A stretch of 20,000 nt of DNA, taken from an uncultured virus (IMG/VR IMGVR_UViG_3300038415_000352) (taxonomy: Duplodnaviria; Heunggongvirae; Uroviricota; Caudoviricetes). The notes under the pieces were generated by a model. The model saw only the letters and a list, made by a program, of their open reading frames with translations, had not been told where the DNA came from and did not search any database. The position numbers were made by a program, and so were the translations under genes. The stretch lies in the IMG/VR virus record IMGVR_UViG_3300038415_000352; one strand, 5' to 3'. This document shows positions 1 through 20,000 of this stretch, in pieces. How positions within the stretch are numbered: the stretch's first letter is position 1; each line of letters starts with the position of its first letter.

Positions 1-336
1 CTCGGCGGCGAGGGCGGCTACGAAATCCTCGGTATCGCCGTTCGGAAGGCGGAGTTCTACGACGTCGGCGTCCGTTCTTCGGTCGCCTACCTCGCCGTCC
101 GGAGCAAGAACTACCCGACGCCGTCGGCGCTCGTCGTCCTCGTTACCCGGAAGAACGGCGCGTTCTGCTACAAGGATATGTCGGAGGATATGGGTCCGAA
201 CGAGGACCATTGCCCCGAGAGTATCCTCCGCCTCCTCGGCCCGATTACCGGCGACGAGATGGGCTACGCCCGAGCTTGGCGGGAGCGGGCGTGGGCGAAC
301 CTCGGGAAGGCCCCGCCGGAACTACGGAGGGAGTAA
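1..336 (+). CDS. 5'-truncated DUF6927-like mobile-element protein
   Basis: Frame 1 is open from the window edge: ...AFCYKDMSEDMGPNEDHCPESILRLLGP...YARAWRERAW...ELRRE*. YKDMxExMGP-CP-IL-L-AxxWRxR matches my recollection of DUF6927. Not in the ORF track. Confidence 0.6.
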   Translation, partial: LGGEGGYEILGIAVRKAEFYDVGVRSSVAYLAVRSKNYPTPSALVVLVTRKNGAFCYKDMSEDMGPNEDHCPESILRLLGPITGDEMGYARAWRERAWANLGKAPPELRRE

Positions 337-338
337 GA

Positions 339-590
339 ATGGACCCACGCTGGATAGCCTCGACCGCGATTCTGCTGACCGGGCTCGGGATGCTCCTCGT
401 CGGGCACTTCTATGGGGTATCGGAATACCTCGTCTTCGGGGTTATCGTCCTCGTCCTCGGTATCGTGCTCTCGGCGGCGTTCGCAGGGCTTACCGACTGG
501 CGGGCGTTAATCATCCTGACCTTCGGACTCCTCATCTTCTTTACGCTCGCCGACGTCTACAACCTCTTCGGTCTATCGGGGTGGGTCTGA
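339..590 (+). CDS. Small integral membrane protein (83 aa, about 3 TM)
   Basis: ATG at 339 follows the junction motif, so the TTG start at 210 is rejected. MDPRWIASTAILLTGLGMLLVG... is almost entirely hydrophobic. Confidence 0.75.
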   Translation: MDPRWIASTAILLTGLGMLLVGHFYGVSEYLVFGVIVLVLGIVLSAAFAGLTDWRALIILTFGLLIFFTLADVYNLFGLSGWV

Positions 591-620
591 GGCTCAACGG
601 AATAGGAAGGAGAAAGGAAC

Positions 621-2345
621 ATGAAGCAGATACTAGCGTTCGTGATAGGGGTAGCTCTCTTGGTCGACGTCTCTCTCTTCGTCGGCCTCGGGTTCGGTTT
701 CGGAGCCCTCTCCGTGACCGGCTCGAACAATCTACAGACCTGTAACTCGTCGGACCAGTACTGCTGGACGATGAGCCCGGGTTGGGCCTCCCCCGATAAG
801 CAGCAGGGAATCCAAATCAATATCGAGTCGAGCGTCCAGCAGGGAGCGAATCCGATTACGACGATGCTCTCGGGGGACCAGAGTACCTCGGTCAGCTTCG
901 GTATGTACGCGCAACTTTCTCCGTACGACGCCTGCCCTCGGTCGGGCGCTTGGCAGGGCGGTTACGAAGCGTGGTGGGTTATCGTCTGGCCCCAGTCCGT
1001 CTCGGGGTCTATCGACGGGACGCAGTTCACGGGCTCGACCTGGTCGGGGCAGAACCTCGCCCAGAACGATAGTATCTCGGCGGGCCTCGCGGACCTAGTC
1101 GGTTGCCAAGCCGGTACGGGATACAACGATAACGGACCGACCGGGAACCTCTATACGCATACGGTAACGCTTACCGGGCTCTACCCCGTCATGACGATGA
1201 ATCTCTACTTCGGTACGTACGGACAGTGGTGCGATAAGTACGCGGGTTCCGTTACGAACCAATGCTACGGTCTCTCGCAGGCGATTACCGAAACCTACGG
1301 GGCCGGAACGGGGAATAACGGAGGCTGGAACGCCGAAGCCTCGGCCTCGTTCGTCTGGCAGTCCGCGCAGGCTTCCTTCCAGTTCGTCGACCCGCAGAAC
1401 AACTATAACGGCGGGACGCTAACCGCGATTTTCTATACCGCCTATAACGGGGCGAACGGCTACAAGTTCTCTATCGATACCCCGTCGGAACGGCCGAACG
1501 GCGGCCAGCTCGATACGAACTTCGCGAATAACCCGATGACGATTCCGAACTTCTGTACTACGGGATGCGAGTACAAGTGGGCTATCCCGAAGACCCTCGA
1601 TACGAACCTCTCGGGGCACGACGTCCAATGGGACCTTTGGTCCGGAGTCCTCTCGGCCTCGACGGTAGCGGAGCAGATAACGCAGTTCACCGTTATCAAT
1701 CCACTCTACGCTCCGACGACCCCCGTCGTTACCTATACGAGTAGCGGAGCGGGCATCTACCCGGCGGTCGGCGATACGGTTACCCTGACCGTCTACTCGA
1801 ACGCCTCGCAGGACTCGGGGATGGTCCAGAGCATCGACGTCGAGGTCTACTACCTCTCCCCGGGGCAGGGCGTATCGTCCGCGCCTTCGTGCGGTTCGGC
1901 TCCGGCTTGGGTGACGCCCTGCCCGAACGGGCAAATCCTCGTCGTAACGCACGACGGAAAGAACGCGGTCGGGACGTACACCTTTAAGGTAAACCCGCCC
2001 ATCGGAGATACGGCTATCGCGGTCGCGGCGGTATCCGCCTCGAATATCTCCCCGTCGCTCTTCGGCTACCAACTTATCAGCATTAAGGCTTCCGACTGCG
2101 CGCCGGGCGCTACCTGCGACCCGCTTCAGTCGGGGGTAACGACTTGGGAGATTATCGGGCCGATACTCCTGATGGGGGCTTTCATCCTAGGGGCGGTCCT
2201 CCTCGTCCTACTCGTTCCGATACCGCCGTGGGTCCGCTTCGCGCTACCTATCGCGGTCGTAGCCATACTGATACTCCTCTATGCCCTCGGCTGGATAACG
2301 GGGCTCTTCGTACCCGGCGGAGCCTTTAACTCGGCGGTGGCTTAG
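621..2345 (+). CDS. Large surface protein: N-terminal signal/TM, Cys/Gly/Thr-rich beta ectodomain, C-terminal TM hairpin (574 aa)
   Basis: Hydrophobic N-terminus, S/T/G/N-rich middle with paired Cys, two C-terminal hydrophobic helices. Purine leader GGAAGGAGAAAGGAAC. Confidence 0.8.
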   Translation: MKQILAFVIGVALLVDVSLFVGLGFGFGALSVTGSNNLQTCNSSDQYCWTMSPGWASPDKQQGIQINIESSVQQGANPITTMLSGDQSTSVSFGMYAQLSPYDACPRSGAWQGGYEAWWVIVWPQSVSGSIDGTQFTGSTWSGQNLAQNDSISAGLADLVGCQAGTGYNDNGPTGNLYTHTVTLTGLYPVMTMNLYFGTYGQWCDKYAGSVTNQCYGLSQAITETYGAGTGNNGGWNAEASASFVWQSAQASFQFVDPQNNYNGGTLTAIFYTAYNGANGYKFSIDTPSERPNGGQLDTNFANNPMTIPNFCTTGCEYKWAIPKTLDTNLSGHDVQWDLWSGVLSASTVAEQITQFTVINPLYAPTTPVVTYTSSGAGIYPAVGDTVTLTVYSNASQDSGMVQSIDVEVYYLSPGQGVSSAPSCGSAPAWVTPCPNGQILVVTHDGKNAVGTYTFKVNPPIGDTAIAVAAVSASNISPSLFGYQLISIKASDCAPGATCDPLQSGVTTWEIIGPILLMGAFILGAVLLVLLVPIPPWVRFALPIAVVAILILLYALGWITGLFVPGGAFNSAVA

Positions 2346-2361
2346 GGGAGGAGAAAAGAAA

Positions 2362-3573
2362 ATGAGCGCACAGGTCGGCGGAGTACTAACGGCGGTCGGA
2401 GCTATCGGGCTCGTTATCGGGATTCTCGGAGCGTTCGGTATCGTTCCCGGTCTCGCGGTAACCTGCGTCTCGAACTGCGGTACCGGGATTACTCCCTCGT
2501 TCTCGGTATCCCAGAACGGGTATGCGATTTACCTGAACGATACGTCCCACTGGGCGAACTCGGCCGATAGGAACGGCTACCTGACGTTAAGCGTCAATTG
2601 GGGCGATAGTACGCCGGCCTCGGCCTTTACGCCCCCGAATAACCAGCTCCCTATCTCGCACATGTTCGAGCACGTCTACGTCGCGGCCGGGACCTATACG
2701 GTAGCAGAGACTATCGCGCACGAACAATGCGCCGGCGGGCGGGGCGGCGTCCACTGCAAGACGACCGATATCGTCGCGCAGGGTCAGTTCGCCATCTCGG
2801 GCATCGGGGGGCAGAACAAGTACGTCCCGGGCTTTACCTATACGACTGCGACGGGGAACGTCGTTAACGTTAAGGATACCTCGACGACCTACGGCTCCCC
2901 GACCCTGACCTCGATTAAGTTCGTCTGGGGCGACGGGTCTACGAACAGCCCGACGGCGCTCGGGTTCTCCCTCTCGCATACCTACGCCGCCGCCGGGAAC
3001 TATACCGCTACGGAGACGATATCGTGGACCTACGTCGGCGAGCCCTTCTCGGCGCCGTTCTCGACTACGATACCGGTAGGCTGCTCCAGTTGTACGAACG
3101 TAGTGACCGTTAACGTAGACTTTTCGACGAGCTTCGTAAACTACACGCTGGCGGTAAAGGATACCTCGACGACCGTCGGCTCTCCGACGGTTACGGGTCT
3201 AGCGCTCGCTTGGGGCGACGGCCAGACGGGTTCGGCGAAGGCGCTCGGGGCTAACTTTACCCATACCTACTCGACGTACGGGAACTACTCGCTTACCGAG
3301 ACCGTATCGTGGACCTACTCGGGGAACTCGTACTCGGCGACCTCGAACGCTACGGTATCGCTCCCCTGCTTCGGGACTTGCGGAACGAAGACGAACACGA
3401 CGACGAACTCGACCTTCTCGTTCAACCTCGTAACGGGAGTCCTTATCGTCGGGTTCGGAACGCTCGCCCTCCTCGGGTTCCTCGTAATGCGGTTCCCGGT
3501 CTACGGAACGGTCATCATCCTCGTCATGTTCGCGCTCGGCGGGGCCATCGGCTACGTAGTCGGGGGTCTCTAG
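2362..3573 (+). CDS. Membrane-anchored protein with three PKD-like domains (403 aa)
   Basis: Three repeats of DTS...WGD(G/S)...HxYxxxGxY(T/S)xxET, with an N-terminal TM and a C-terminal TM pair. Confidence 0.85.
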   Translation: MSAQVGGVLTAVGAIGLVIGILGAFGIVPGLAVTCVSNCGTGITPSFSVSQNGYAIYLNDTSHWANSADRNGYLTLSVNWGDSTPASAFTPPNNQLPISHMFEHVYVAAGTYTVAETIAHEQCAGGRGGVHCKTTDIVAQGQFAISGIGGQNKYVPGFTYTTATGNVVNVKDTSTTYGSPTLTSIKFVWGDGSTNSPTALGFSLSHTYAAAGNYTATETISWTYVGEPFSAPFSTTIPVGCSSCTNVVTVNVDFSTSFVNYTLAVKDTSTTVGSPTVTGLALAWGDGQTGSAKALGANFTHTYSTYGNYSLTETVSWTYSGNSYSATSNATVSLPCFGTCGTKTNTTTNSTFSFNLVTGVLIVGFGTLALLGFLVMRFPVYGTVIILVMFALGGAIGYVVGGL

Positions 3574-3602
3574 GGACGCTCTAAGGGAAAGGAGGAAAGA
3601 AG

Positions 3603-4601
3603 ATGAATCAGTGGTCGGGAATCCTAGCGGTAATCGGGGTCGTCGGGCTCCTCGTCGGAATCTTCGGGGCTATCGGGACGATTCCCGGCCTCGCAGTAAC
3701 CTGCCCGACGACCGCTATCGTAGGGGGTAGCACGGCGTTACCCCGCTGCGGCGGTACTCCCGAGATTACGGCGTACCTTACGGTCGCCCCGGGAACGACC
3801 GGCGCGAACGTTACCATCTCGGGGGCCTACTACCCCTCGGGGATGACGCAACCCGTCGTCTCGTTAAGTATCGATAGCGCGTCGGTCGCGCTCACCGCGA
3901 CTACGAAGGTAAACTCGGTAGACGCCTATACGAATGGGCCCGCGTTCTACACGCTCTCACCGGGGAACCATACCGCAAAGGCGACCGCTACGTCTTCGTA
4001 TCTCGGAACGAAGTACTCGGCTACGAGCGAGTCTATCGCGTTCATCGTCGGGTCGAACTCGCGGTGCCAGATAAACTGCAATACGACGAAGTGGTCGATT
4101 ACCCCCGCGTTCAAGTATACCTCGACCTCGGCCGGGGTCCTTACGGTAATCGATACCTCTACAGTAAGCGGCGTTACCGGGGTCACGTTCGCTTGGACCT
4201 TCGGGGACGGCAGTACCGGCTCGGGTTCGAATGCGACCCATACCTACGCCGCGAGCGGGGGCTATACGGTAACGGATAAGGTTACCGGAACGACGTACCT
4301 CGGGGTAGCTACGGCGAGCGCAAGCCACGTCGTGAACATTACGGTAGGGACGACGACTCCGAACAATCAGACCTGCGGAACCCCGACGACGCCGATATGC
4401 GTCTCGACGGGTCCTCCTCCGCCAGCTCCGTCGGTTGAGCCGTTTAACGCCGCGACGGGCCTGCTGATTATCGGCTTCGGCGGGCTCTTCGTAGCGGCGA
4501 TTATCCCGGGGAACCCGGAATGGCGGGCTATCCTCGCTATCGTCGCGCTCGTCGTCGGCTTCGGGGCAGGGTACTTCGTCGGAGGACTCGGCCCGCTCTA
4601 G
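3603..4601 (+). CDS. Membrane-anchored PKD/Ig-like protein (332 aa), paralog of 2362-3573
   Basis: WTFGDGSTGSGSNATHTYAASGGYTVT is a canonical PKD motif. Shares PGLAVTC and the C-terminal FNxxTGxLIxGFG...GYxVGGL with the upstream gene. Confidence 0.85.
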   Translation: MNQWSGILAVIGVVGLLVGIFGAIGTIPGLAVTCPTTAIVGGSTALPRCGGTPEITAYLTVAPGTTGANVTISGAYYPSGMTQPVVSLSIDSASVALTATTKVNSVDAYTNGPAFYTLSPGNHTAKATATSSYLGTKYSATSESIAFIVGSNSRCQINCNTTKWSITPAFKYTSTSAGVLTVIDTSTVSGVTGVTFAWTFGDGSTGSGSNATHTYAASGGYTVTDKVTGTTYLGVATASASHVVNITVGTTTPNNQTCGTPTTPICVSTGPPPPAPSVEPFNAATGLLIIGFGGLFVAAIIPGNPEWRAILAIVALVVGFGAGYFVGGLGPL

Positions 4602-4659
4602 GGCGGCCTGAAGGAAAGGAGAAAGGGGAGGAACCCGAGCGGAGGGGGAGGGAGCGAAG

Positions 4660-5076
4660 ATGTTCACCCCGGAGGACGCCTACGGGAAAGGCCCATACGA
4701 AATCTGGTACCTACCTCGGTACCGCCCGACGGGGCCCGGCCACGACCTCTCCCACCCTGAGATGCGCGCGGCGTTCGGGACGAACTCGAAGTACTTCCGT
4801 GAGAACCCTATTACCGTCGAGGAGGTCGAGCATACCTACGCCCGGATGGGCTCGATAGCCGCGACCGGCCTCGAGGACGTCTGGGCGAAGATGCAGGGCG
4901 AGAACTGGGGGCGGGGCGAGGAGTCGAACGCCTTCCTCCGGAAGGTCGGTACGGGCCATACCTCGATGATGATGGGCGACGTTATCCAGCACGGAGGGAA
5001 GTGGTTCATCGCCGACGAGGTCGGCTTTACCGAGATTGACCGAGCCCCCTCGGGCCGCGGCCTACGGAGGGAGTAG
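4660..5076 (+). CDS. YodL-like domain protein (138 aa)
   Basis: LEDVW...GHTSMMMGDVI...WFIADEVGFTEI resembles the YodL pattern LExIF...HSxSVxDVV...YxVDxxGFxE (from memory). Ends RRE. Confidence 0.5.
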   Translation: MFTPEDAYGKGPYEIWYLPRYRPTGPGHDLSHPEMRAAFGTNSKYFRENPITVEEVEHTYARMGSIAATGLEDVWAKMQGENWGRGEESNAFLRKVGTGHTSMMMGDVIQHGGKWFIADEVGFTEIDRAPSGRGLRRE

Positions 5077-5472
5077 ATGCCGCGGTCGAAGCGCCCGAAG
5101 TTCGAGCGCGCGGTCGATATCAATAACGGGTCGACTTGGATGGTTTGGGATAAGGGACCGTGGGGCGTAGACGTCGTAGACGGGACGCACTTCGCGGCGC
5201 AGGTCTTCTCCGAGGAAGGATATACCTCGGAGGAAGGAGACGAAGATACGGAGACCGAGGTCTTCCCGCGCACCCTCGGAGGATTGAAAGAGGCCGAGGA
5301 CTTCCTAAGCAACAACGGGGGCCCGGACGATATTCACCTCGTCGATGTCGAGAAGGGCGTCGGCCGTCCCGAGGACCTTCGATACTACCGCGAGGACCGG
5401 CTAAAGGACGAGCGGCTATGGTCCGAGCGGATAGAGAAGGACCGGAAGCACGCCGACGTAAGGAGGGAGTAG
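5077..5472 (+). CDS. Hypothetical acidic protein (131 aa)
   Basis: ORF bounded on both sides by the junction motif; ends VRRE. Confidence 0.75.
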   Translation: MPRSKRPKFERAVDINNGSTWMVWDKGPWGVDVVDGTHFAAQVFSEEGYTSEEGDEDTETEVFPRTLGGLKEAEDFLSNNGGPDDIHLVDVEKGVGRPEDLRYYREDRLKDERLWSERIEKDRKHADVRRE

Positions 5473-5934
5473 ATGCAGCCTATCTCGGAAGAGGACCGTC
5501 AGAGGCTAGCGATGGAAGACGCCGAGTCGGAGTCGACCGAGAACCTCGAGGCGGCGGCGACGGTTTACGACCGGCTTAAGCGAGAGAGTACCGGGACCCC
5601 GGCCCCTCGGCCCCGCCCCTCTCGCGCGGAAATCGTAAAGGTCCTCAACCGCCGCCTTCGGGAAGTCGGTCTAACGAATCTCTCGGCGCACGGCGCTCGC
5701 GGAACGGCGTGGGGCTGGATAGAGGTATCGCCGAAGCATCGCGAGGGCGAGTCGTTCCGATACTTTACCCCGGAGGAGAGCGAGAAGCTCGGGAGAATCT
5801 ACGGGCGAGCCCCGGGACTAACGAACGTCCTCTCGGACGAGATAGACGATTGGGCGCTTAAGCTCGGGCTCCTCGCGCCCGAGGATTACCACGAGAGCCC
5901 GTGGCGGACGCTCGTACGGGAGAACCGAGACTAA
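5473..5934 (+). CDS. Hypothetical protein (153 aa)
   Basis: Starts at a TAGATG junction; contains LSAHGARGTAWGWIEV; TAATG overlap with the next gene. Confidence 0.75.
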   Translation: MQPISEEDRQRLAMEDAESESTENLEAAATVYDRLKRESTGTPAPRPRPSRAEIVKVLNRRLREVGLTNLSAHGARGTAWGWIEVSPKHREGESFRYFTPEESEKLGRIYGRAPGLTNVLSDEIDDWALKLGLLAPEDYHESPWRTLVRENRD

Positions 5935-6152
5935 TGAAGCGGTACGTAGTCCAACTCGAGACCATCTACGGCGACCGGGTCGTTGCTCTCGAAGGGAACG
6001 GGCCGAGGATTAGCGGTCGGGTCGAGGGTCATTCGACTGTCGCCGCGGCCTCTAAGGAGGCCGTTAAGCGAAGGCCCGCTCGCGTCTGGGACCGGAAGCT
6101 CCGCCGTCCGGTTACGTGGGCGAACGGCCGGACCCGGATACGGAGGGAGTAG
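5934..6152 (+). CDS. Hypothetical basic protein (72 aa)
   Basis: Start reassigned to the ATG overlapping the upstream TAA (MKRYVVQL...); ends IRRE. Confidence 0.7.
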   Translation: MKRYVVQLETIYGDRVVALEGNGPRISGRVEGHSTVAAASKEAVKRRPARVWDRKLRRPVTWANGRTRIRRE

Positions 6153-6686
6153 ATGCCGTACGATGAGGACGAGCTAAACGAGATTCGCGAGAACGACGAC
6201 CGCTCGTTCAAGCGGGAGGTCCGGCATGTCGAGGCCGAGGCCGCGTCGGAAGACCCCGCGCGTATCCGTACCTTCGACCGGCAGAAGGGAATCGTCGGCG
6301 ACCTAAACCGGGCACTCAAGCGGGCGAAGCTCTACCCGACGAAGAAGGAGTTCGAGCTTGGCTACTGGGCGGTTCAGAGCGGAGAGGAGGGAGGCTGGTC
6401 GACCGAGCCCCGCCCCGGGAACTCTAGGATAGTTCTCTGGCATCGGCTACCGAACGGTTGGGGCGACCCCCGCCGTCCTACGAGCGGCGGACTCTTCGGG
6501 GTCGCGACGCAGGACCTGGGCGGCTACCCGGTCGACGAAGAGAGCGCCTACCGGCTCATCCTGATTATCGACGGGCTCCGAGGGACGAGGAAGGAACGAC
6601 TCGAACAGCTCGGGAACATTACGCTAGCTATCGGCTACGCTCGGAACGAGGCGCTCGAAGCGGAAGACCGCCTACGGAGGAAGTAA
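6153..6686 (+). CDS. Hypothetical protein (177 aa)
   Basis: Junction start; ends LRRK with variant GGAGGAAGTAA. Confidence 0.75.
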   Translation: MPYDEDELNEIRENDDRSFKREVRHVEAEAASEDPARIRTFDRQKGIVGDLNRALKRAKLYPTKKEFELGYWAVQSGEEGGWSTEPRPGNSRIVLWHRLPNGWGDPRRPTSGGLFGVATQDLGGYPVDEESAYRLILIIDGLRGTRKERLEQLGNITLAIGYARNEALEAEDRLRRK

Positions 6687-6688
6687 CG

Positions 6689-6931
6689 ATGCCTCGGATG
6701 ACGGCGCAGGAAGCCGCGACGAGCAACGTTAAGTGCGTTAACTGCGGCCACGCCGGGAAGTACCACGCGCAAGAGTCCCTCTACGGAGGACTACGCGGGA
6801 AGTGGCGCCAATGCCGTCACCGAGTTCCGAAGCGCCTCGCGCGCGTCGGGGTAGACGAGTGCGGTTGTACCGACTTCGAGCCGCCGATGACTAAGGGAGA
6901 CCTCTTCCGGGCCCGGGTCAGGAGGGAGTAG
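6689..6931 (+). CDS. Small Cys/His metal-binding protein (80 aa)
   Basis: MPRMTAQE...CVNCGH...H...CRH...CGCTDF; starts after TAACG; ends VRRE. Confidence 0.75.
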   Translation: MPRMTAQEAATSNVKCVNCGHAGKYHAQESLYGGLRGKWRQCRHRVPKRLARVGVDECGCTDFEPPMTKGDLFRARVRRE

Positions 6932-7291
6932 ATGGGTTGGGAACTGCGGTACGACCGCGGAAAGGGATTCCGGTTCTTCTCGACGATTACGATGAGCTAT
7001 ATCTCCGGCTGGCTCAAGACGCCCGATAACGTAGGTCGGTTCGCCTACGAGACCGGGCTCGAGCACGCGCGGCGGCACCTCGCTACGGCCCCGAACGCCG
7101 GGGTCGTTAGGACTTCGACCGGCGGTCTCGGTCTCGGCTATTGGGGTCTCGGTTCCCCGCGTTCCGACCTCGACCGTACGCCCGAGGACTACGGTCGCTA
7201 CCTCGCCCGCTATTGGTCGGCCGAGGCGAAGAAGGAACTCAAGCGGGTCGGGAAGTATCCCGACCTGACTACCTACGGATGGAGGGAGTAG
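6932..7291 (+). CDS. Hypothetical protein (119 aa)
   Basis: Junction-bounded ORF; ends GWRE. Confidence 0.75.
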   Translation: MGWELRYDRGKGFRFFSTITMSYISGWLKTPDNVGRFAYETGLEHARRHLATAPNAGVVRTSTGGLGLGYWGLGSPRSDLDRTPEDYGRYLARYWSAEAKKELKRVGKYPDLTTYGWRE

Positions 7292-7295
7292 ATGG

Positions 7296-7463
7296 ATGCC
7301 GACCCCTCGGTTCGTTCTGCTCGCAGTCGGGGTTATCCTCGACGTCTTCGGGTTCCTCCTCCTCTTTACGGCGTACCTCTCCGTACCGGTTCCCCAATGG
7401 GAGGTCGGAGCGGCGCTCCTCGCTATCGGGATAGTCCTCGATATCGCGGGGGTCTTAGCGTAG
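7296..7463 (+). CDS. Small two-TM membrane protein (55 aa)
   Basis: MPTPRFVLLAVGVILDVFGFLLLFTAYLSVPVPQWEVGAALLAIGIVLDIAGVLA*. Below the track cutoff, and more protein-like than the overlapping 7292-7477 ORF. Confidence 0.7.
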   Translation: MPTPRFVLLAVGVILDVFGFLLLFTAYLSVPVPQWEVGAALLAIGIVLDIAGVLA

Positions 7464-7477
7464 GGGAGGAGACGTAG

Positions 7478-7819
7478 ATGCCGAGCGATAAGGTCGTAAT
7501 CGAAATCGACGGGAAGGCGCTTATCGCCGCCCCCGACGGTCCGGTGTTTATCCGCGAGCGGGCGATACAAGAGATTCGCCTAACGAAGCGGTACGACGAG
7601 GAGGAGATGAAGTTCGTCGAGAAGGACTCGACCTTTACCGCCTCCTGCGAGAACGCCTACCTAAAGGTCCGCGATGCGTGCTCGGGCCGAGAGTGGCACG
7701 AGGCGAAGGTCACCGATAAGGGGAAGACCCCGAGCCACGCGCCGTACCGCTGGAGCGTCGCGATTCACTACGAGCGGCCGGGGACCCGTGGGATGTTCAA
7801 CCGGCTAATGAAGGAGTAA
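7478..7819 (+). CDS. Hypothetical protein (113 aa)
   Basis: Leader GGAGGAGACGTAGATG; ends MKE with AAGGAGTAA. Confidence 0.75.
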   Translation: MPSDKVVIEIDGKALIAAPDGPVFIRERAIQEIRLTKRYDEEEMKFVEKDSTFTASCENAYLKVRDACSGREWHEAKVTDKGKTPSHAPYRWSVAIHYERPGTRGMFNRLMKE

Positions 7820-8094: not shown

Positions 8095-8096
8095 CG

Positions 8097-8351: not shown

Positions 8352-8355
8352 GAAA

Positions 8356-8862: not shown

Positions 8863-8864
8863 CA

Positions 8865-9341: not shown

Positions 9342-9352
9342 GGGGGAGAACG

Positions 9353-10755: not shown

Positions 10756-10785
10756 GGGAGTAACCGAGAGAAGAAGGGGAAGAAA

Positions 10786-12107: not shown

Positions 12108-12623
12108 ATGGCGCATAAGCTAGCAATCGGGAAGGGGAACACGACGGTGATGACTTGGCCCGAGTTCCGCGAGTTCCTTCGGGGGAAGATAATCTACCAC
12201 CACCAAGTGAACTGGGTCGAGGAGTGGACGAGTCTCGACCGCGAAGCGACGGAGGCCCAGTACTTCCCGTACAACGGGTTCCTGCTACGGAAGGCGGACG
12301 CCCTCGGCCGTTACCCCTACGCGGGCTACGGCGAGAAGACCCTCGGGACGACCGTTAAGCGAACGGGGAAGGGCTACTGGGACTCCGACTACTGGAAGGT
12401 TACCTACAACGACGGACGCAACGACTATACCGGCGCGAAGACCGGGCGAAAGCCGAAGTACTACGTTACCTTCCATAAGGGTCGTGAGGACGTTCTCTGT
12501 AACCGGTGCGGCCGGGAGATTACCGGCCGCGACGTTCAGCTCGGGAGCTACGTAAACTCGGGCGGCCAAATCTGCGGCGACTGCCGGAACGACGAGCGCG
12601 AGAAGAGCCTCCGGAGAGAGTAG
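12108..12623 (+). CDS. Hypothetical protein with C-terminal zinc finger (171 aa)
   Basis: Start reassigned to MAHKLAIG; CNRC...CGDC; ends LRRE (GGAGAGAGTAG). Confidence 0.75.
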   Translation: MAHKLAIGKGNTTVMTWPEFREFLRGKIIYHHQVNWVEEWTSLDREATEAQYFPYNGFLLRKADALGRYPYAGYGEKTLGTTVKRTGKGYWDSDYWKVTYNDGRNDYTGAKTGRKPKYYVTFHKGREDVLCNRCGREITGRDVQLGSYVNSGGQICGDCRNDEREKSLRRE

Positions 12624-13061
12624 ATGAAGTCCGTAACGATGGCGAGAGCGAACGAAGTCTGGGCCCTCGGGAAGGAACTCTCGGGCGGCTTCGGCCTCTG
12701 GGGGACTATCGACCAGCTAACGTCCCTCGACGGCTTTACCGAGTGGAAGCGTCTCGCGGTCGTAGAGGGCTGGATTAACGGGGCGAGGTCGCTCGGCTTT
12801 ACCGATACCGATGCGGCGGCGCTCGGGGACTGGCGGATAGGCCGGCACTTCGTCGATACGGCTTCCTTCTGGAACCTCGACCCGCCCGAGGTCGTTCGGA
12901 AGAAGGCGCAGAAGGCCGCGGTCGATGCGATTAGCTACGCCGTAAAGGACGAGGGTGGTATCGCGGAGGTCAAGCGACAGCTCGTTCTGAACTATACGAA
13001 CTACTACCCCGTTAGCTACGCGAACCGACTAGGGCGTACCCCGTCGGTTAGGAGGGAGTAG
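12624..13061 (+). CDS. Hypothetical protein (145 aa)
   Basis: Junction-bounded ORF; ends VRRE. Confidence 0.75.
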   Translation: MKSVTMARANEVWALGKELSGGFGLWGTIDQLTSLDGFTEWKRLAVVEGWINGARSLGFTDTDAAALGDWRIGRHFVDTASFWNLDPPEVVRKKAQKAAVDAISYAVKDEGGIAEVKRQLVLNYTNYYPVSYANRLGRTPSVRRE

Positions 13062-13280
13062 ATGCCGTTCTATCCGGTCGGTCGGAAGGCGAAGGGCGAA
13101 CTCCCGATGTACGCTGTTCTTCGGAGCTATAACGAAGGGACCGCGATAGAACGATACTTCGATACCGAGCGGGCGGCGAAGGACTGGGCCGAGAGCCATC
13201 TTCTTCCGACCGACGAGATGCTCCTCGTCGTTAAGCTACTCGGCTACGCGAGGCCCGTTACGGCCCCGAGGAGGGAGTAG
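13062..13280 (+). CDS. Hypothetical protein (72 aa)
   Basis: FDTERAAKDWAE motif; ends PRRE. Confidence 0.7.
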   Translation: MPFYPVGRKAKGELPMYAVLRSYNEGTAIERYFDTERAAKDWAESHLLPTDEMLLVVKLLGYARPVTAPRRE

Positions 13281-13283: not shown

Positions 13284-13628
13284 ATGACGAGCGACGAGAA
13301 GCGGATGAGCCCCGAGGACGGCGGCGAGGTAGCGGAGTTCATTCGGAACGTCGACGAGGGGAGCTACGAGTGCCTCTGCGGGAATCACGTTAAGCTGAAC
13401 GAGCGCTCGTTCCGCGGCTATCCCCACGAGGGCGGCCTCTCCGATAAGAACGGGAAGCGCTGGTGGGTCTGGGCGACCTGCCCGCGATGCAACTACCAGA
13501 TGAGCTGGCGGAGCCTCCCGTACCGTCTCCGCCTAGAGCCGATGCCCGAGGGCTGGAAGCCCGGGGCGCCGGGATGGGAGCCGGGGTGGCAGGCTCGCCG
13601 CGTCAGCGGCTTTCTTAGGAAGGAGTAA
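13284..13628 (+). CDS. Zinc-ribbon protein (114 aa)
   Basis: CLCG...YPHEGG...WWVWATCPRC; ends LRKE. Confidence 0.75.
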   Translation: MTSDEKRMSPEDGGEVAEFIRNVDEGSYECLCGNHVKLNERSFRGYPHEGGLSDKNGKRWWVWATCPRCNYQMSWRSLPYRLRLEPMPEGWKPGAPGWEPGWQARRVSGFLRKE

Positions 13629-13630
13629 CG

Positions 13631-14116: not shown

Positions 14117-14127
14117 GGAGGGAGTAG

Positions 14128-14418
14128 ATGACGAAGCGCTCGGTCGAGGCCGCGGAGAGGAGAATCCGGAAAGAGGTAGTCGGCTGGCTCCGCGCTACGT
14201 ACGTCAAGAAGTCGCTCCGCGCCGAGGTGAACGTAGACGAGGATACGCTCGACGATGGTCCGTACTTCTGGGCCTATATCTACGACGGGAAGAAGCTCGT
14301 CGCCGAAGGCTCGGGATGGTTCGAGCAGCAGACCGACCCGTTCGACGAGATGGAATCGGACCTGAACGAGAAAGGCTACCGTCGTATTCCTCTACGGAAC
14401 CTGATACGGGAGGACTAG
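14128..14418 (+). CDS. Hypothetical protein (96 aa)
   Basis: Follows an intergenic exact junction copy; ends IRED. Confidence 0.75.
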   Translation: MTKRSVEAAERRIRKEVVGWLRATYVKKSLRAEVNVDEDTLDDGPYFWAYIYDGKKLVAEGSGWFEQQTDPFDEMESDLNEKGYRRIPLRNLIRED

Positions 14419-15030: not shown

Positions 15031-15218
15031 GCCGTCTCGCCGAGCCTCCCGAACCTCCGCGCGAAACGCTACGGGGTCGCCTCTACCGATGCGAGCGATG
15101 CGGCTACGACCGGCGATTCTACCTCTCGCCGCCTATCGGCGAGCAACGGAGATGCCCGAAGTGCCGGCGCTACTCGCTCGAGCCGGTACGGGACGAGCGG
15201 GTCCTACGGAGGGAGTAA
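15027..15218 (+). CDS. Zinc-ribbon protein (63 aa)
   Basis: YRCERCG...CPKC; ends LRRE. Confidence 0.75.
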   Translation: MSRLAEPPEPPRETLRGRLYRCERCGYDRRFYLSPPIGEQRRCPKCRRYSLEPVRDERVLRRE

Positions 15219-15439
15219 TGCCCCGTCCTAACCCCCTTGACGAGCGGGAGGCCCGAATCCAGCGTGCCCACGACGCCTACCAGAAGGCCCGGGGAATCGC
15301 TGCCGCGGACCCGACCCCCGCGAACCTTACCGAGGAGAACCGCCTCCATAAGGAGTACGTAACGCTTCTCTACGAGGAAGAGCCTTCTCCTAGACGGGAG
15401 CAGACCATCGAGGATTTCGCTTCGATACGGAGGGAGTAG
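15218..15439 (+). CDS. Hypothetical helical protein (73 aa)
   Basis: TAATG-coupled start MPRPNPLD; ends IRRE. Confidence 0.7.
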   Translation: MPRPNPLDEREARIQRAHDAYQKARGIAAADPTPANLTEENRLHKEYVTLLYEEEPSPRREQTIEDFASIRRE

Positions 15440-16594
15440 ATGCCGAAGGTAATCGTAGTGCTCGCAATCGCGGCGACCGTCGTCATAGCGGCCTTCTCCG
15501 CGGCGACTACGATAGCGTACGGTTCCCTCGGCGCGCGGGGCGGGCTGTCGGTAGACGATACGAATAACTCGACCCTTCCCTCGCAGGACTTCCTCGGTAC
15601 CCCGACGGTGAACGTAACGACCGTTCCTATGCTCTACGACGACTCCGCGAGCTGGTTCTCGAACGGCTGCTCGTACAACGGGTCCGTACCGTATACGGTC
15701 CCGTTCCCCTCGAACGACCCGAACGCGACCCCCGGTACCCAGATGGCCGTAGTAAACGCGCTCGGGCCAGGCTACGGTTGCGGGACGGGCTGGTTCGCCG
15801 AGGTCTGGAACTTTACGGCGAACGCGACCCTCGTCGCGGAGAACGATTGGTTTAACGTTACGACGAACTGGACCCTCTCGAATACCTCGGGAGAAGTCGT
15901 AGGGGTTAACTCGGTCTCCGTGACCGTTAGCTCGGAGACCCTCTCGACGAACGGGACCTTCTCGCTCTACGTCGAGTTCCCGGGGAACCCGGTATCGCTC
16001 GGAACGACGAACGTTACGGTCGAGGCGGCGCCGCCGGTCTCGGTTCCCGCTACCTTCGGAGGGAACGGACGGGACGCGCGAGGAACCTTCCCTCCGGCGA
16101 ACGTATCGCAGAACTTCGTTGCCGACCCGGCCCTCGAGCCCCAACTCGTCGGGGAGCAGTCGACGATATACTCCGACGCGGTAGCGGCGCCGGATGGTTG
16201 CTCGAATAGCGTCGCGAATAGTACTCCCGGCGTCCTAACCGGTATCCCATTCCCCGAGCCCGGCGGGAACTACGAGCAGGCGCTCTTCGCGAACGCCGGC
16301 GAGGTCTCGGCCTGCTCCGGCGGCGACTACGGGATGCTCTTTACCTTCCTCGTCTCGACGCCGCTCTCGGCGGAGAACGATTGGTTCAACGTTACGACGA
16401 CTTGGGTGACCCCGGGCGGGGCGACCGTTACCGGGTTTAGCGACTCCCTCGTAAGCGTCGTCCCGGGGAATCTCCCGGGCGGGTCGGAGAACGCGCTCCT
16501 CCTCGTCTACGTCGACTACGGGGCGGGAACCCCGACCGTCCTATCGTGCTCGATTACGGTACAAGCGACCTCGCAGGTGGTCGTCGTAGGGTAG
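15440..16594 (+). CDS. Secreted putative glycoprotein with an internal two-domain duplication (384 aa)
   Basis: Signal-like N-terminus; AENDWFNVTT and LYV(E/D)(F/Y) each occur twice; many N-x-S/T sequons; no C-terminal anchor. Confidence 0.8.
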   Translation: MPKVIVVLAIAATVVIAAFSAATTIAYGSLGARGGLSVDDTNNSTLPSQDFLGTPTVNVTTVPMLYDDSASWFSNGCSYNGSVPYTVPFPSNDPNATPGTQMAVVNALGPGYGCGTGWFAEVWNFTANATLVAENDWFNVTTNWTLSNTSGEVVGVNSVSVTVSSETLSTNGTFSLYVEFPGNPVSLGTTNVTVEAAPPVSVPATFGGNGRDARGTFPPANVSQNFVADPALEPQLVGEQSTIYSDAVAAPDGCSNSVANSTPGVLTGIPFPEPGGNYEQALFANAGEVSACSGGDYGMLFTFLVSTPLSAENDWFNVTTTWVTPGGATVTGFSDSLVSVVPGNLPGGSENALLLVYVDYGAGTPTVLSCSITVQATSQVVVVG

Positions 16595-16605
16595 GAGAGA
16601 GTAGA

Positions 16606-17037
16606 ATGATTTTCGGACGACGACCCTCGGGGGCTACGGACGCGGAACTAATCTCGGCTTATATCGAGAGCCGAGTCGAGGAGAACCACTTCGAGTCGGA
16701 ACTCGAGCACGAGCGTATCGAGAACGGGCCGGAGGCCGAGCATTGGTCCTTCGAATGGCGGGAGAACTACCGTACCCGTATCGAAGGAATCGAAGAACGT
16801 CTCGGGGCGGTCCGCGAGCGGATGGCCGATATTATCGATGACCTCCGCGCTCGTAAGTACCGGCTTAACTTCGAGTATGAGGACGACCCGCTTACCGGGG
16901 CGCCTATCAATAAGGACCGTACCCATCTCTATACTATCCAGAAGGGACGACGGCGGTCCGACTTAATCGCGATAGAGTCGGTCGCGCGACGCCGTTTCCC
17001 GCCTACGGAGACGGGGCTAATACAGTGGAGGGAGTAG
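16606..17037 (+). CDS. Hypothetical coiled-coil protein (143 aa)
   Basis: Start reassigned to the ATG after GGAGAGAGTAGA; ends QWRE. Confidence 0.7.
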   Translation: MIFGRRPSGATDAELISAYIESRVEENHFESELEHERIENGPEAEHWSFEWRENYRTRIEGIEERLGAVRERMADIIDDLRARKYRLNFEYEDDPLTGAPINKDRTHLYTIQKGRRRSDLIAIESVARRRFPPTETGLIQWRE

Positions 17038-17039
17038 CG

Positions 17040-17504
17040 ATGACGATAGCCGACGAGAAGCCGTACGCCTCGGACCTAAAGGAGATGGAGCGCGTCTGGG
17101 ACGAATACGTCCGGAAGGAACTCGGCCGCGACTATCGGGGCGAGGTCCGCGACGGGGAGAATCCAAAGCGACGAGCCTCCATCGACCGTATCGATATCAT
17201 CGACGGGGGGCCCGGGGGCCGCTACGACGTAACGCTCGTCGTCGTCCGGGTCGCCCGCCGGCACGGCGACCTCGAGACGCGGGACGGGGTCGTTTGGAAG
17301 CGGCGGTATGACGTTCTCGATAAGATGCTCGTCCGGGACGCCGCGATACAGGAGAACCGTTCGATATCTGAATGGGAGCGGAACCGCCGGTCGGAGGACC
17401 TCTGGCGGAATACCCTGACCTACGATATTCAGGACTCGATTCGCGAGGGTGGGTTCCCGAGCCTTCGGAGGATTCGAAGCGAGTACGCGTTCCCGAGGGA
17501 GTAG
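17040..17504 (+). CDS. Hypothetical protein (154 aa)
   Basis: Start after TAGCG; ends FPRE. Confidence 0.75.
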   Translation: MTIADEKPYASDLKEMERVWDEYVRKELGRDYRGEVRDGENPKRRASIDRIDIIDGGPGGRYDVTLVVVRVARRHGDLETRDGVVWKRRYDVLDKMLVRDAAIQENRSISEWERNRRSEDLWRNTLTYDIQDSIREGGFPSLRRIRSEYAFPRE

Positions 17505-17759
17505 ATGCCGCGAAAGCCCCCCGAGTTCCTCGAGGAAGGATGCCCTGCCTGTACCTACCATTTTCTCTATAAGGGAACGGCGGATGGCTCGGGCTCAGGC
17601 GCGGGGGCGATTATCGCAATCGCGGCAGTCGCCATCGGTGCTACCGTTGCCGCCGGTCTTCTGGCCAATCGAAAGGTCCCGTGCCCTCGGTGCAAGAACC
17701 CTATTCGGCGAGGCATAGCCCAATGTCCCTATTGCTACAGCTCGATCACATGGTCGTGA
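17505..17759 (+). CDS. Probable chimeric ORF: array N-terminus (CPAC) fused to TM plus double zinc ribbon (84 aa)
   Basis: Junction start; composition changes near codon 23; hydrophobic helix then CPRC...CPYC. Confidence 0.6.
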   Translation: MPRKPPEFLEEGCPACTYHFLYKGTADGSGSGAGAIIAIAAVAIGATVAAGLLANRKVPCPRCKNPIRRGIAQCPYCYSSITWS

Positions 17760-18340
17760 ACGGCGGAAAGGAATGGAGACTCCGGGACCCTAAAGAGTGG
17801 AAGCGGCAGAACGGAGTTCGCCGCGGCGCCTGGGCCTGGCAGCGAGTCGGCCACTCAAACTTCCGATCGGCGAGGCGGTCCGAGACGCGAGACCTCGAGC
17901 TCCGCAAGTGCGGCCGCTGCGGGAACCCCGTCCATGTCACGTCCCTCAGAGCGCCGGTGGTCGAGGAGGGACCGCCGCCCTGGACAAAGGCGGCAGCGTC
18001 GTTCAATCCGCGCGTCTTCGCGGGCGACCCGCTGGGGAGCGTCTCCTGGTGCCCCAAGTGCGGAGTTGCATTTCCGCCGGCGGAGCACGTGCTGCGCGAG
18101 CAATTGCGTCGAGCCGAGGGGCGAGCGGACGGTAGGTTCACGAATGCCTTCCCGATTTGGTGGGATCAGTCCGAATCCGTGCGCCGATCCTGGGAGACGC
18201 GTCGTGCCCGCTACGGCCCGAATGGCTGGAAACCGGGAATGGAGCACGGCGGGTGGGAGACTCGACGGGCGCGGTATGGCCCGACCGGGATGAGACAGAG
18301 AATCGGCTTGGCGTCGAGTTCGACGGGGGTGCCTGCATGA
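17750..18340 (+). CDS. Zinc-finger protein with duplicated WETRRARYGP (about 196 aa)
   Basis: CGRC...CPKC; repeat at 18191 and 18254. Start is uncertain (ATG 17750 or GTG 17756). ATGA-coupled to the integrase. Confidence 0.65.
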   Translation: MVVNGGKEWRLRDPKEWKRQNGVRRGAWAWQRVGHSNFRSARRSETRDLELRKCGRCGNPVHVTSLRAPVVEEGPPPWTKAAASFNPRVFAGDPLGSVSWCPKCGVAFPPAEHVLREQLRRAEGRADGRFTNAFPIWWDQSESVRRSWETRRARYGPNGWKPGMEHGGWETRRARYGPTGMRQRIGLASSSTGVPA

Positions 18341-19017
18341 GTCCCGTTCCTACTCCCCCCATTCAAGGCACGGAAACGTCCCCGGGAGCGGGTCTCGGGA
18401 AACCCGGGATGGCCGATACGCCGTCTTCCCCCACAAGTCGGAATACGCTCGCCCGGACCCACACAATTCACGCAGGAACGCTCGCGCTGACCCCGGATGA
18501 GCTGGACCTCGTCTTGAGGCCCGTCGATCGCCTGGAGGAGCGTTCTCTGCTGGAGCTGGCGGCTACAACGGGCATCCGGCGAGAGGATGTGGTCGCGATT
18601 CCGCTGGAGGGGCTGGATCTTACCCGTGGGACAGTCAGATTCTACGAGTCCAAGAAACGGCGTACCCGGGAGGTCCCCGTCCAGGGCCGTGTCCTGGTGA
18701 CCCTCCGAACCTACGTTCGGCGCCTCCAGAAAGGCGAACGGTGGCTCTTCCCGTCGCCCAGGAAGGCCGGGAAGCATCAGACGGGGCGGTTCGCCTGGAC
18801 GATCTGGAATCGCTGGCTAGACGCCGCGGGGCTGCCCCGCCGGCCCTTCCACGCGCTGCGCGCGACCGCCTACAAGCTTGCGAAGGCGCGGGGCTGGTCG
18901 GTCGAGCTCGCGGCTGCACTTCTGGGGGATACGATTCGGGTCGCTCAGGAGTTCTACGGGGTCGCGACGCCCGGGGAGCTGCTCGAGATCGCGCGGGAGA
19001 GGCCGCTGCTGCCATGA
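18337..19017 (+). CDS. Tyrosine recombinase/integrase, catalytic domain only (226 aa)
   Basis: TTGIRRED (R), ESKK (K), WLFPS, FHALR (HxxR), LLGD (usually LGH), QEFY (Y). ATG 18337 overlaps the upstream TGA. Confidence 0.9.
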   Translation: MSPVPTPPIQGTETSPGAGLGKPGMADTPSSPTSRNTLARTHTIHAGTLALTPDELDLVLRPVDRLEERSLLELAATTGIRREDVVAIPLEGLDLTRGTVRFYESKKRRTREVPVQGRVLVTLRTYVRRLQKGERWLFPSPRKAGKHQTGRFAWTIWNRWLDAAGLPRRPFHALRATAYKLAKARGWSVELAAALLGDTIRVAQEFYGVATPGELLEIARERPLLP

Positions 19018-19128
19018 AGACCTCTGCCTTCACTGTAACGTGAAGCGTGGTGCGAAGAGTCTCCGGTCATACAATCCCGGCGCCCAGCGTACCCTCACGG
19101 AAGGGCTCGCAAAGGAGGAACCGAACAG

Positions 19129-19293
19129 ATGAGCGAATGCGTCCACTGTCACGCGGAGGTCGGCAGCCGACGGTGGCTCGACATGCCGATGTGCGAGGTC
19201 TGTGAGCTCGTTCAACGAGAGGCACTCTCTCGGATCGCGCAGCTGGTCCGCCCTGTCAAGTGGTCCGCGTCGCCGGAGCTGCTCGAGGAGTAA
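19129..19293 (+). CDS. Small CxxC-CxxC zinc-finger protein (54 aa)
   Basis: AAAGGAGG SD; MSECVHCHAEVGSRRWLDMPMCEVCELVQREALSRIAQLVRPVKWSASPELLEE*. Below the track cutoff. Confidence 0.65.
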   Translation: MSECVHCHAEVGSRRWLDMPMCEVCELVQREALSRIAQLVRPVKWSASPELLEE

Positions 19294-19867
19294 GGCTCCC
19301 TTCGCGCGCCCCGCCGCAATTCCCCTTCAGGTGCATCGCCGAAGTGAGATGGCGACGGTACGCATCGCCGCGGGCGAACGTAACGTGCCCACACTGGAAT
19401 ACAGGTGGTGGGGGAGGCGAGGAGACCGTAGCGCGCCCCGACTCGCCTTCGCTTGAGAGAGGGTCTGGAGCCGTTGTCGCCGCGGCGCCCAGGCAGACAT
19501 GCGTCGCGATCAGGTACGCAGAACCCAGCTTTCCACACTTCTTACACTCCCTAAGATGGCCCGACGGGTCGAGCGCGTGGAGGCGGAACCACTCTACGTT
19601 CCGGGCCTTTGCCCGCTCGTTGTAGGTCCTGAACCAGGCGGTCCCGTCCGGGTTCGGCCAGGTAATCGGGCTCACCGCGTTCCAAGCGTCGAACGGAACC
19701 AAAGCCTGGGACCGCTTGCGCTGGGCGCCGATGTAGGCCCGGTTCACCTGGGCCCGCCCCCTGTCGTTCACGAAGATCCAGAAATTGGCGAGGCCGGCGA
19801 CGAACAGGAAATCGAGGAGCTCCTTCTTGATCGCGCAGAAGATGGCCCCGTGTCCGTTCTTCCGCAT
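19256..19867 (-). CDS. Hypothetical protein with Cys/His zinc-finger-like motifs (203 aa)
   Basis: Strong GC3 bias in the 5' half on the minus strand; CKKC...HVC and C...RRHLTSAMH motifs. Confidence 0.6.
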   Translation of the reverse strand: MRKNGHGAIFCAIKKELLDFLFVAGLANFWIFVNDRGRAQVNRAYIGAQRKRSQALVPFDAWNAVSPITWPNPDGTAWFRTYNERAKARNVEWFRLHALDPSGHLRECKKCGKLGSAYLIATHVCLGAAATTAPDPLSSEGESGRATVSSPPPPPVFQCGHVTFARGDAYRRHLTSAMHLKGNCGGAREGSLTPRAAPATRTT

Positions 19868-19890
19868 GATCGAGGTCGTTCGTCTCGCTA

Positions 19891-19938
19891 AAGGAAGATA
19901 CGGCGCCGTATGGCGTAGCCGTCCCGAGGAGAGAGTAA
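19891..19938 (+). pseudogene. Orphan 3' fragment of an array gene (KEDTAPYGVAVPRRE*)
   Basis: Ends in junction variant AGG AGA GAG TAA CG ATG. No start codon between the in-frame TGA at 19867-19869 and this segment. Confidence 0.55.
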
Positions 19939-19940
19939 CG

Positions 19941-20000
19941 ATGGTCGAACCACCGAACTTTGGACCGAGACCCGAGCATCGCGATTCCGTACGAGTACCG
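19941..20000 (+). CDS. Start of the next array gene (3'-truncated)
   Basis: ATG after the junction variant; MVEPPNFGPRPEHRDSVRVP... is open to the window edge. Confidence 0.6.
   Translation, partial: MVEPPNFGPRPEHRDSVRVP

Follow-up and report, generated by a model that had tools for sequence, protein, structure and literature searches.

How do some thirty small and mostly unrelated genes come to be strung together by one short sequence, and does that sequence serve to express the genes, to exchange them, or both? The question is raised by a 20,000-nucleotide stretch of DNA from an uncultured virus (IMG/VR record IMGVR_UViG_3300038415_000352), which was analyzed at its full length and is called the window below. 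An earlier note, made from the letters alone, had drawn attention to the motif GGAGGGAGTAR at its gene boundaries and had proposed that this was the joint of a new, integron-like gene cassette system. The window belongs to a large, nearly all-ORFan mobile element, be it virus, plasmid, or island, whose host is a Thermoplasmata archaeon from peat. It bears on the way in which viruses and plasmids assemble and renew their large stocks of small orphan genes, a question least understood in archaea. We find a fixed joint at which whole blocks of genes have been lost or gained in two events, and which probably couples translation from one gene to the next.

The exact 11-mer occurs 19 times in the window, in the places where the earlier note had put it, always on the plus strand and from position 326 to 17027. 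By chance 0.07 copies would be expected, and none of 200 shuffled sequences reached 19. When up to two mismatches were allowed, there were 46 matches against 16.3 expected, 34 of them on the plus strand. The variants had been said to lie at gene boundaries without exception; this holds for 13 of the 15 inexact plus-strand matches, the other two (3720 and 5229) being internal to genes. An ATG stands −1 to +4 nt from every exact copy and in each case opens an open reading frame (ORF) of at least 60 codons. In 18 of the 19 copies the TAG or TAA is also the in-frame stop of the preceding ORF, in the single phase nGG AGG GAG stop, and the proteins end in RRE (13 copies), WRE (3), or GRE (2). The fixed joint is therewith confirmed as an observation, as are its single phase and its shared tails; the contexts of all 19 copies agree with the view that the motif brings its own Shine-Dalgarno (SD) sequence, stop, and start. 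The proteins so joined are, as claimed, mostly unrelated: all-against-all BLASTP of 51 proteins gave four pairs of different proteins at E ≤ 0.01 (three at E ≤ 1e-5), a fifth match being one gene that occurs in both the window and contig C116.

Conservation extends beyond the 11 bases. The longer form GGAGGGAGTAGATG is found in 12 of the 19 exact copies, and the consensus of the joint is nGG AGG GAG TAG ATG CCn, the stop abutting the start; Met-Pro opens 12 of 38 proteins. Four copies (6676, 7809, 9580, and 13618) have another fixed form, AGTAACGATG. Two joints, the exact copy at 14117 and a one-mismatch copy at 16594, are non-coding. Neighboring genes lie −4 to +4 nt apart at 28 of 38 junctions and exactly 0 nt apart at 14, with −4 and −1 overlaps at only 3. 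Upstream of the window's ATGs, GGAGG peaks at distances of 6, 8, and 10 nt (11, 7, and 5 cases), and the predicted unpaired probability is 0.47 at the 38 starts versus 0.39 at 300 interior sites (p = 4e-5).

The nearest genome, G001, is a 2.2-Mb metagenome-assembled genome (MAG), 86% complete, that carries the element on three contigs and differs from the window by three bases across the common stretches. G001 yielded no archaeal small-subunit rRNA, and the 16S 3′ end was therefore read from three related genomes, two of the same genus and one of the same order (...GGAUCACCUCCU); full archaeal 16S matches were present in 16 of 21 relatives. GGAGG pairs with the CCUCC of this end (...CACCUCCU-3′), 6 nt ahead of the ATG. 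The pairing takes in 5 of the 11 motif bases, and the GAGTAG that follows has none; an alternative register, GGGAG, includes one wobble and lies just 3 nt from the start. An ordinary SD sequence is thus insufficient to account for the motif, as had been argued. Nor is the motif used equally before host genes as a plain 16S match, the outcome that the earlier note had named as its refutation: of 18 exact copies in G001, 17 are on the three element contigs and one is elsewhere (a reversed-pattern control gave 3). A 160-kb host contig showed no GGAGG peak ahead of ATGs in a crude count that took every ATG followed by at least 100 codons. Stop codon usage was TAG 25, TAA 10, and TGA 3 in the window (n = 38) versus TGA 70, TAG 40, and TAA 15 in host ORFs of at least 300 amino acids (n = 125).

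Comparison of the window with G001 revealed three structural differences. In block variant 1, seven whole genes of the window are absent from G001, and the joint that replaces 5083-7473 there falls in GTAGATGCCG (10 nt), which both the exact joint at 5066 and its variant counterpart at 7465 contain. Block variant 2 likewise consists of seven whole genes that G001 lacks; its crossover lies within TA[A/C]TG[A/G]AGGAGTAACGATG (17 of 19 nt alike), with edges marked by two of the three base differences between the window and G001. For these two events, loss or gain of a block at the joint is plainly documented. The third difference is of another kind: a 2,283-bp module carrying a tyrosine recombinase stands where G001 has 335 bp, and both breakpoints are inside a zinc-ribbon gene. 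The expectation that breakpoints would fall in the motif was thus borne out for two differences, which cross over inside the joint, and not for the third, which cuts through a gene. Movement of single-gene cassettes found no support, the events being seven-gene blocks; no single-gene event was found among the structural differences to G001 and the contigs of four peat sequencing runs.

The contigs of these four runs, aligned to the window (contigs drop rare variants), reproduced its sequence without differences in all four cases. The block 1 deletion joint was present beside the full form in two runs, with depths of 130 versus 453 in X16 and 5.6 versus 11 in X9. In run X20, contigs break at 7810 and 9579, and the depth is 43.5 between the breaks and 55 to 57 in the flanks; this fits block variant 2, the deletion joint itself not being among those listed. 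The joint of the third difference was found in X16, X20, and X8. Across G001 and the runs, all four combinations of blocks 1 and 2 occur, suggesting either repeated events or exchange between variants. Three further joints (9782>17495, 10425>14281, and 12897>17368) were not used as evidence, with 21 to 22 letters on the shorter side; at least the one from 9782 to 17495 is explained by the similarity between two joints. Block loss and gain would be a passive result of short homology and of selection for intact genes.

The joint accompanies accessory genes. Homologs of the 574-amino-acid protein of the window (26 to 32% identity) were found in two MAGs of the same genus and one metagenome contig, and no over-represented junction word was detected at these loci. 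A tblastn search of all element proteins against the relatives' loci identified eight common genes (Table 1). In one relative, L036, the eight adjoin one another within about 10 kb; in the present element they are set apart by stretches of 2 to 16 small ORFans linked by the joint. Because the core membrane-protein genes have a purine-run ribosome site ahead of them (e.g., AGGAGGAAAGAAGATG), and because L036 has an ordinary TGATG overlap and no joint ahead of its homolog of 5473-5934, we assign the joint to the accessory genes in the comparison of core and accessory genes that had been proposed. The purine runs form a second class of ribosome site, AGGAGG followed by A/G-rich spacers such as GAAAGAAGAAAATG, and the two classes may set different levels or timing of translation.

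The core consists of Cys-rich, PKD- or fn3-bearing proteins with an N-terminal signal or transmembrane (TM) segment and C-terminal TM anchors. The core (621-4601, 10069-11733, and 15440-16594; 8345-18469 in L036) is common to three other Thermoplasmata-associated contigs at 26 to 37% identity. Gene 5473-5934, which lies inside the block that G001 lacks, has 73% protein identity to L036 14443-14757, its neighbors about 30%; the gene may have passed between lineages recently or be under exceptionally strong constraint. In IMG/VR, no relative was found for the 574-amino-acid protein or for cassette family A3, family A2 matched just two distant giant-virus contigs without the joint, and a 16-base form of the joint occurred in 14 contigs with a single copy each, which is chance level. 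A search with A1 against genomes and metagenomes returned only distant relatives (26 to 32% identity) that lack the joint, and a family-wide search of 180 genomes with two cassette families found G001 alone.

An exhaustive HMMER search with the product of 12108-12623 listed 35 proteins, of which 30 were examined, the self-hit and four long multi-repeat proteins being left out. None of the 29 homologs of its N-terminal domain has the R/G-R/G-E tail, as the cassette proposal had led one to look for in this joint-carrying protein. P0017, which matches the C-terminal part at 54% identity, ends in LRGE. Two other cassette proteins have one non-self homolog each, P0002 (48% identity, IGRE) and P0005 (58% identity, IRGE), and a third query matched itself only. 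As the 29 lack the tail and P0002, P0005, and P0017 have it, the tail is a property of the element lineage and not of the protein families; the three tailed proteins would imply sister elements. The N-terminal 120 amino acids of 12108-12623 belong to a widespread family of about 110 to 120 amino acids without a Pfam name, mostly Lys-rich in the 29 representatives. The C-terminal zinc-ribbon part has P0017, with another N terminus, as its only homolog. This architecture looks like domain shuffling within the element lineage.

The tyrosine recombinase, the only one in the window, sits in a module that is missing from G001 and from about 19 to 42% of copies in three runs, although these keep the array; the module is therefore not the engine of the array. 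Against the XerA/integron-integrase model the enzyme scored 36 bits (cutoff, 220). When 4600-17800 was scanned for inverted repeats, 29 pairs came out, and of the 25 longest none recurs at joints; the motif is all purine except for the T of TAG and hence does not self-pair. With neither hairpins at the joints nor an integron-type integrase, and with two junction events of seven genes each, nothing points to the integron-like system that had been postulated. In another species of the host genus (G444), a small chromosomal gene for a TM and zinc-ribbon protein matches the 189 bp at 17589-17777 with 98% identity. The 189-bp stretch has about double depth in all four runs, and its loose ends match the flanks of the host-genus gene. 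This is probably the attP/attB-type attachment core of the integrase module and suggests a tie between the element and this host genus; the depths further suggest about one element copy per host genome.

In light of these data, we consider it fairly probable that the joint is a stop/ribosome-site/start unit for translational coupling that doubles as homology for block gain and loss. The 11-mer would be the invariant core of a joint that links about 30 small accessory genes, forming very long operons on one strand. Through GGAGG, 6 nt ahead of the ATG, the mRNA would pair with the CCUCC of the host 16S rRNA; as the preceding stop touches the start, a just-terminated ribosome or a fresh small subunit would begin the next gene. 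In an archaeon, coupling needs an overlap or a very short distance and is abolished at about 20 nt, the last 15 nt of the preceding gene being sufficient, according to PMC10666635. Termination-reinitiation would be needed by genes deep in an operon of 10 to 25 genes, host genes showing almost no SD signal. With 11 to 17 bases repeated more than 25 times in direct orientation, the joint would offer general recombination its preferred short homology; such recombination would remove or add whole gene blocks and always leave a working joint behind, making the array modular in practice without a dedicated recombinase. The extra conservation (GAG, non-coding TAG, ATGCC) would most likely result from copying as a unit by the exchanges plus selection for one optimal context.

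Several points weigh against this reading. The SD pairing covers just 5 of the 11 bases, and the non-coding joints at 14117 and 16594 retain GAGTAG where no stop is needed, a feature not expected if selection acted on translation alone. Coupled genes in prokaryotes mostly overlap by −4 or −1, and 0 nt is unusual (PMC10666635). The host SD analysis was crude, ORF-based, and confined to a single contig. Junction-located events number two, of seven genes each and as either loss or gain, and selection against breakpoints within genes would likewise enrich events at gene boundaries. A bolder version of the same idea, possible if doubtful, is that the joint is a self-propagating "plug," an 11- to 17-base unit copied with each gained gene, with which any ORF could be added, dropped, or moved and be expressed at once. 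It would donate stop, ribosome site, start, and the R-R-E and M-P protein ends and might also be read by an element factor. If true, this would be a translation-level, hairpin-free archaeal counterpart of integron and PeSL cassettes.

Could the 11-mer instead be the recognition site of an element-encoded protein or RNA that co-regulates the class of small genes, recombination being a side effect? The factor might be an mRNA translational activator or repressor, an RNase that cuts ribosome sites in the manner of T4 RegB, or a DNA-bound, stoperator-like repressor. Six bases past the SD core never vary, the two non-coding copies included, the two ribosome-site classes separate small soluble from core membrane proteins, and the motif is nearly absent from the host (1 of 18 copies outside the element contigs). 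The authors of the start-associated sequence (SAS) of Cluster K phages suspected likewise for a very similar pattern (PMC3203893). However, no candidate binding protein is apparent, with 37 of 40 proteins lacking a PHROG match and no nucleic-acid-binding regulator family among the NCBIfam and Pfam matches; the motif has no dyad symmetry; and its variants keep SD, stop, and start and alter other positions, a better fit to translation. We therefore hold such a factor to be unlikely as the main explanation.

A dedicated cassette system, in which a specific recombinase would act at the joint and move single genes in integron fashion without attC hairpins, is very unlikely. It would accommodate crossovers inside the joint in two of the three structural differences, the coexistence of variants within samples, the occurrence in G001 and the runs of haplotypes with no deletion, with one of the two, and with both, the accessory nature of the joint-linked genes, and the presence of a tyrosine recombinase gene in the window. 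Yet it is blocks of seven genes that move and not single cassettes. At the crossovers the partners simply have 10 and about 17 nt in common, and the one at 7465 is a poor copy of the motif. The recombinase belongs to a separate module with its own 189-bp host-identical site, a module that is dispensable in G001 and in three of the four runs, and hairpins are lacking. That the motif is nothing but a strong SD sequence, its uniformity owing to chance, composition, or assembly artifact, is hardly credible. GGAGG is indeed the canonical complement of the anti-SD sequence, and strand-biased GGAGG is also seen in the distant giant-virus contigs; but the 19 exact 11-mers compare with 0.07 expected, spacers vary and a fixed joint is missing in the distant relatives and in other contigs that use GGAGG, and the sequence recurs in contigs of all four runs and in an independent MAG. 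Two further roles were rejected. Readthrough of TAG into polyproteins would find the TAG-ATG joints in frame and the +2 and +4 joints out of frame, and TAG is a common host stop (40 of 125 long ORFs); a promoter or initiator function finds no conserved TATA-like element 25 nt upstream.

Table 1. Joints, block variants, core genes, and other features of the window (a hyphen before ATG marks abutting stop and start; distances are from joint to ATG; MF, basis is motif match plus reading frame)
Feature	Position	Strand	Remark
Exact joint GGAGGGAGTAA	326..336	+	Stop of gene 190-336 (tail LRRE); ATG of membrane-protein gene 339-590 2 nt on
Exact joint TAG-ATG, 0 nt	5066..5076	+	Left crossover site, block variant 1
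Exact joint, 0 nt	5462..5472	+	Ahead of core gene 5473-5934
Exact joint, 0 nt	6142..6152	+	MF
Variant GGAGGAAGTAA + CG + ATG	6676..6686	+	Second form AGTAACGATG
Exact joint, 0 nt	6921..6931	+	MF
Exact joint, 0 nt, tail WRE	7281..7291	+	MF
Variant GGAGGAGACGTAG-ATG	7465..7477	+	Right crossover site, block variant 1; GTAGATGCCG common with 5073-5082
Variant TGAAGGAGTAA + CG + ATG	7809..7819	+	Left crossover site, block variant 2
Exact joint, +2 nt (CG) to ATG, tail GRE	8084..8094	+	MF
Exact joint with TAA, +4 nt	8341..8351	+	MF
Exact joint, 0 nt	8624..8634	+	MF
Exact joint, +2 nt	8852..8862	+	MF
Exact joint, 0 nt	9082..9092	+	MF
Variant GGGCGGAGTAG	9331..9341	+	ATG 11 nt on, at 9353
Variant GGAGGAGTAA + CG + ATG	9580..9589	+	Right crossover site, block variant 2
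Exact joint, 0 nt	9764..9774	+	MF
Exact joint, +4 nt, tail WRE	12093..12103	+	MF
Variant GGAGAGAGTAG-ATG	12613..12623	+	Tail RRE via AGA codon
Exact joint, 0 nt	13051..13061	+	MF
Exact joint, +3 nt	13270..13280	+	MF
Variant GGAAGGAGTAA + CG + ATG	13618..13628	+	Second form
Exact non-coding joint	14117..14127	+	Stop of preceding gene at 14114-14116; GAGTAG-ATG still kept
Variant GGGAGGACTAG-ATG	14408..14418	+	Sequence context
Exact joint, TAA overlaps ATG (TAATG, −1)	15208..15218	+	Sequence context
Exact joint, 0 nt	15429..15439	+	Ahead of gene for 384-amino-acid secreted/membrane protein
Variant GGAGAGAGTAG + A + ATG, non-coding	16594..16604	+	Stop of preceding gene at 16592-16594
Exact joint, +2 nt, tail WRE	17027..17037	+	MF
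Variant CGAGGGAGTAG-ATG	17494..17504	+	Sequence context
Variant GGAGAGAGTAA + CG + ATG	19928..19938	+	Sequence context
Block variant 1	5083..7473	+	Seven whole genes, absent from G001; deletion joint also in runs X16 and X9
Block variant 2	7825..9575	+	Seven whole genes, absent from G001
Third difference	17591..19873	+	2,283-bp module with tyrosine recombinase; 335 bp in G001; both breakpoints inside zinc-ribbon gene
Recombinase module	17591..19873; tyrosine recombinase 18157/18253-19017	+	Pfam generic Phage_integrase
Putative attachment core	17589..17777	+	189 bp matching small host-genus chromosomal gene (98% to G444)
Eight common (core) genes	Two in C116; 621-2345, 2362-3573, 3603-4601, 5473-5934, 10069-10755, 10786-11733		
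Three core genes	621..4601	+	574-amino-acid Cys-rich membrane-anchored protein, two PKD-domain membrane proteins; purine-run site (AGGAGG-A/G-rich-ATG), not joint
Two core membrane-protein genes	10069..11733	+	Second with fn3 domains; purine-run sites upstream
Purine-run sites	2346-2361, 3574-3602, 10057-10068, 10756-10785; C116 80-99		Ahead of core membrane-protein genes

From 190 to 17759 the window holds about 39 genes, without exception on the plus strand. The joint-rich domain runs past both of its ends, from C116:952 to C76:4448, and the stretch 4600-14000 is complete in 20 peat and wetland runs. Larger genes lie beyond this domain, on the same strand of G001 contig C76 (7622-19824, L019), where they encode a TatC homolog (E = 9e-31), a 2,474-amino-acid protein without a Pfam match, and a 1,093-amino-acid fn3 protein; with the TatC homolog the element may supply its own secretion component for its surface proteins. 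Pfam domains in the window are PKD (2362-3573 and 3603-4601), fn3 (10786-11733), and tyrosine recombinase (18157-19017). For the 40 window and 34 neighbor proteins, Pfam, PHROGs, and NCBIfam gave little beyond PKD, fn3, TatC, and integrase; 37 of the 40 window proteins lack a PHROG match, and NCBIfam adds nothing of substance. No capsid, terminase, or replication genes were recognized among the element proteins. The 574-amino-acid protein had no usable match in the ESM Atlas, and its model was of low confidence. No Rfam families were found in the window, and megablast of the window against a phage collection gave no match. A 90-nt tRNA-Gly(TCC) called by ARAGORN at 15091-15180 on the minus strand, inside gene 15027-15218, is probably spurious, as no Rfam tRNA reached the gathering score.

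Several known systems resemble this array in part. The array shares with integrons (attI/attC/IntI) the single orientation of promoterless, unrelated accessory genes, and differs in having no attC hairpins, no IntI-type integrase beside the array, and no single-cassette events seen. The modular theory of phage evolution of Susskind and Botstein invokes short conserved stretches between genes, at which whole genes are swapped by homologous exchange; these boundary or linker sequences are those of bacteriophages, while the joint here is archaeal and far more uniform and numerous. Translational coupling by termination-reinitiation was reportedly treated by Huber et al. in 2019. In a later paper (Huber et al. 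2023, PMC10666635), coupled genes are same-strand neighbors about 0 nt apart with the SD sequence inside the end of the preceding gene, as here, and the usual arrangement is a −4 or −1 overlap of variable sequence, whereas the present junctions are mostly 0 or +2 nt and of one fixed sequence. By its geometry (28 of 38 distances at −4 to +4 nt, GGAGG 6 to 10 nt upstream), the array fits translational coupling.

In evolutionary behavior, the closest analogue is the PeSL of T4-type phages (Arbiol et al. 2010, PMC2839356). There, a conserved expression signal flanks ORFans in plastic regions, and near-identical genomes have used it as the homology by which genes are inserted, deleted, or replaced; the integron comparison is the authors' own, with no dedicated recombinase known, and mini-circles have been demonstrated. 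Indel breakpoints lie in the repeated signal here too, in two of the three differences, with one joint confirmed in two of the four runs. The PeSL, however, is an intergenic promoter plus terminator stem-loop of about 100 bp, while the unit here is 11 to 17 nt long, partly coding, and translational, without promoter or hairpin and with 0 to 4 nt between genes.

What makes the locus worth attention is a gene boundary so standardized that the expression signal is itself the recombination substrate, with block variants coexisting in single samples. Environmental data can accordingly test linker-mediated modular exchange and start-associated sequences as regulatory handles, and the placing of SD, stop, and start within 14 nt is a compact natural design for gene chaining in archaeal expression constructs. 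No comparable case in an archaeal element was met in the literature by searches that were not designed to exclude one.

In form, the closest analogue is the SAS of Cluster K mycobacteriophages (Pope et al. 2011, PMC3203893). It is a short asymmetric repeat, in 11 to 19 copies of one orientation, a few bases before starts that are enriched for ATG; it is confined to small non-structural genes, combines an SD core with conserved positions unable to pair with 16S rRNA, is absent from the host, and sometimes includes the preceding stop, all of which recalls the present joint. In contrast, the SAS has the sequence GGGATAGGAGCCC and belongs to phages of bacteria, while the joint here differs in sequence and has an archaeal host. 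The stop is here obligatory, phase-fixed, and touching the start (0 nt in 14 of 38 junctions), the companion inverted repeat (ESAS) is lacking, and crossovers at the motif are documented. With the position and conservation of the SAS class and without the Cluster K sequence, the joint is an analogue of the SAS and not a member. On the best reading, analogues would be known from phages, the SAS for form and the PeSL for behavior, and what is new here would be the archaeal setting.

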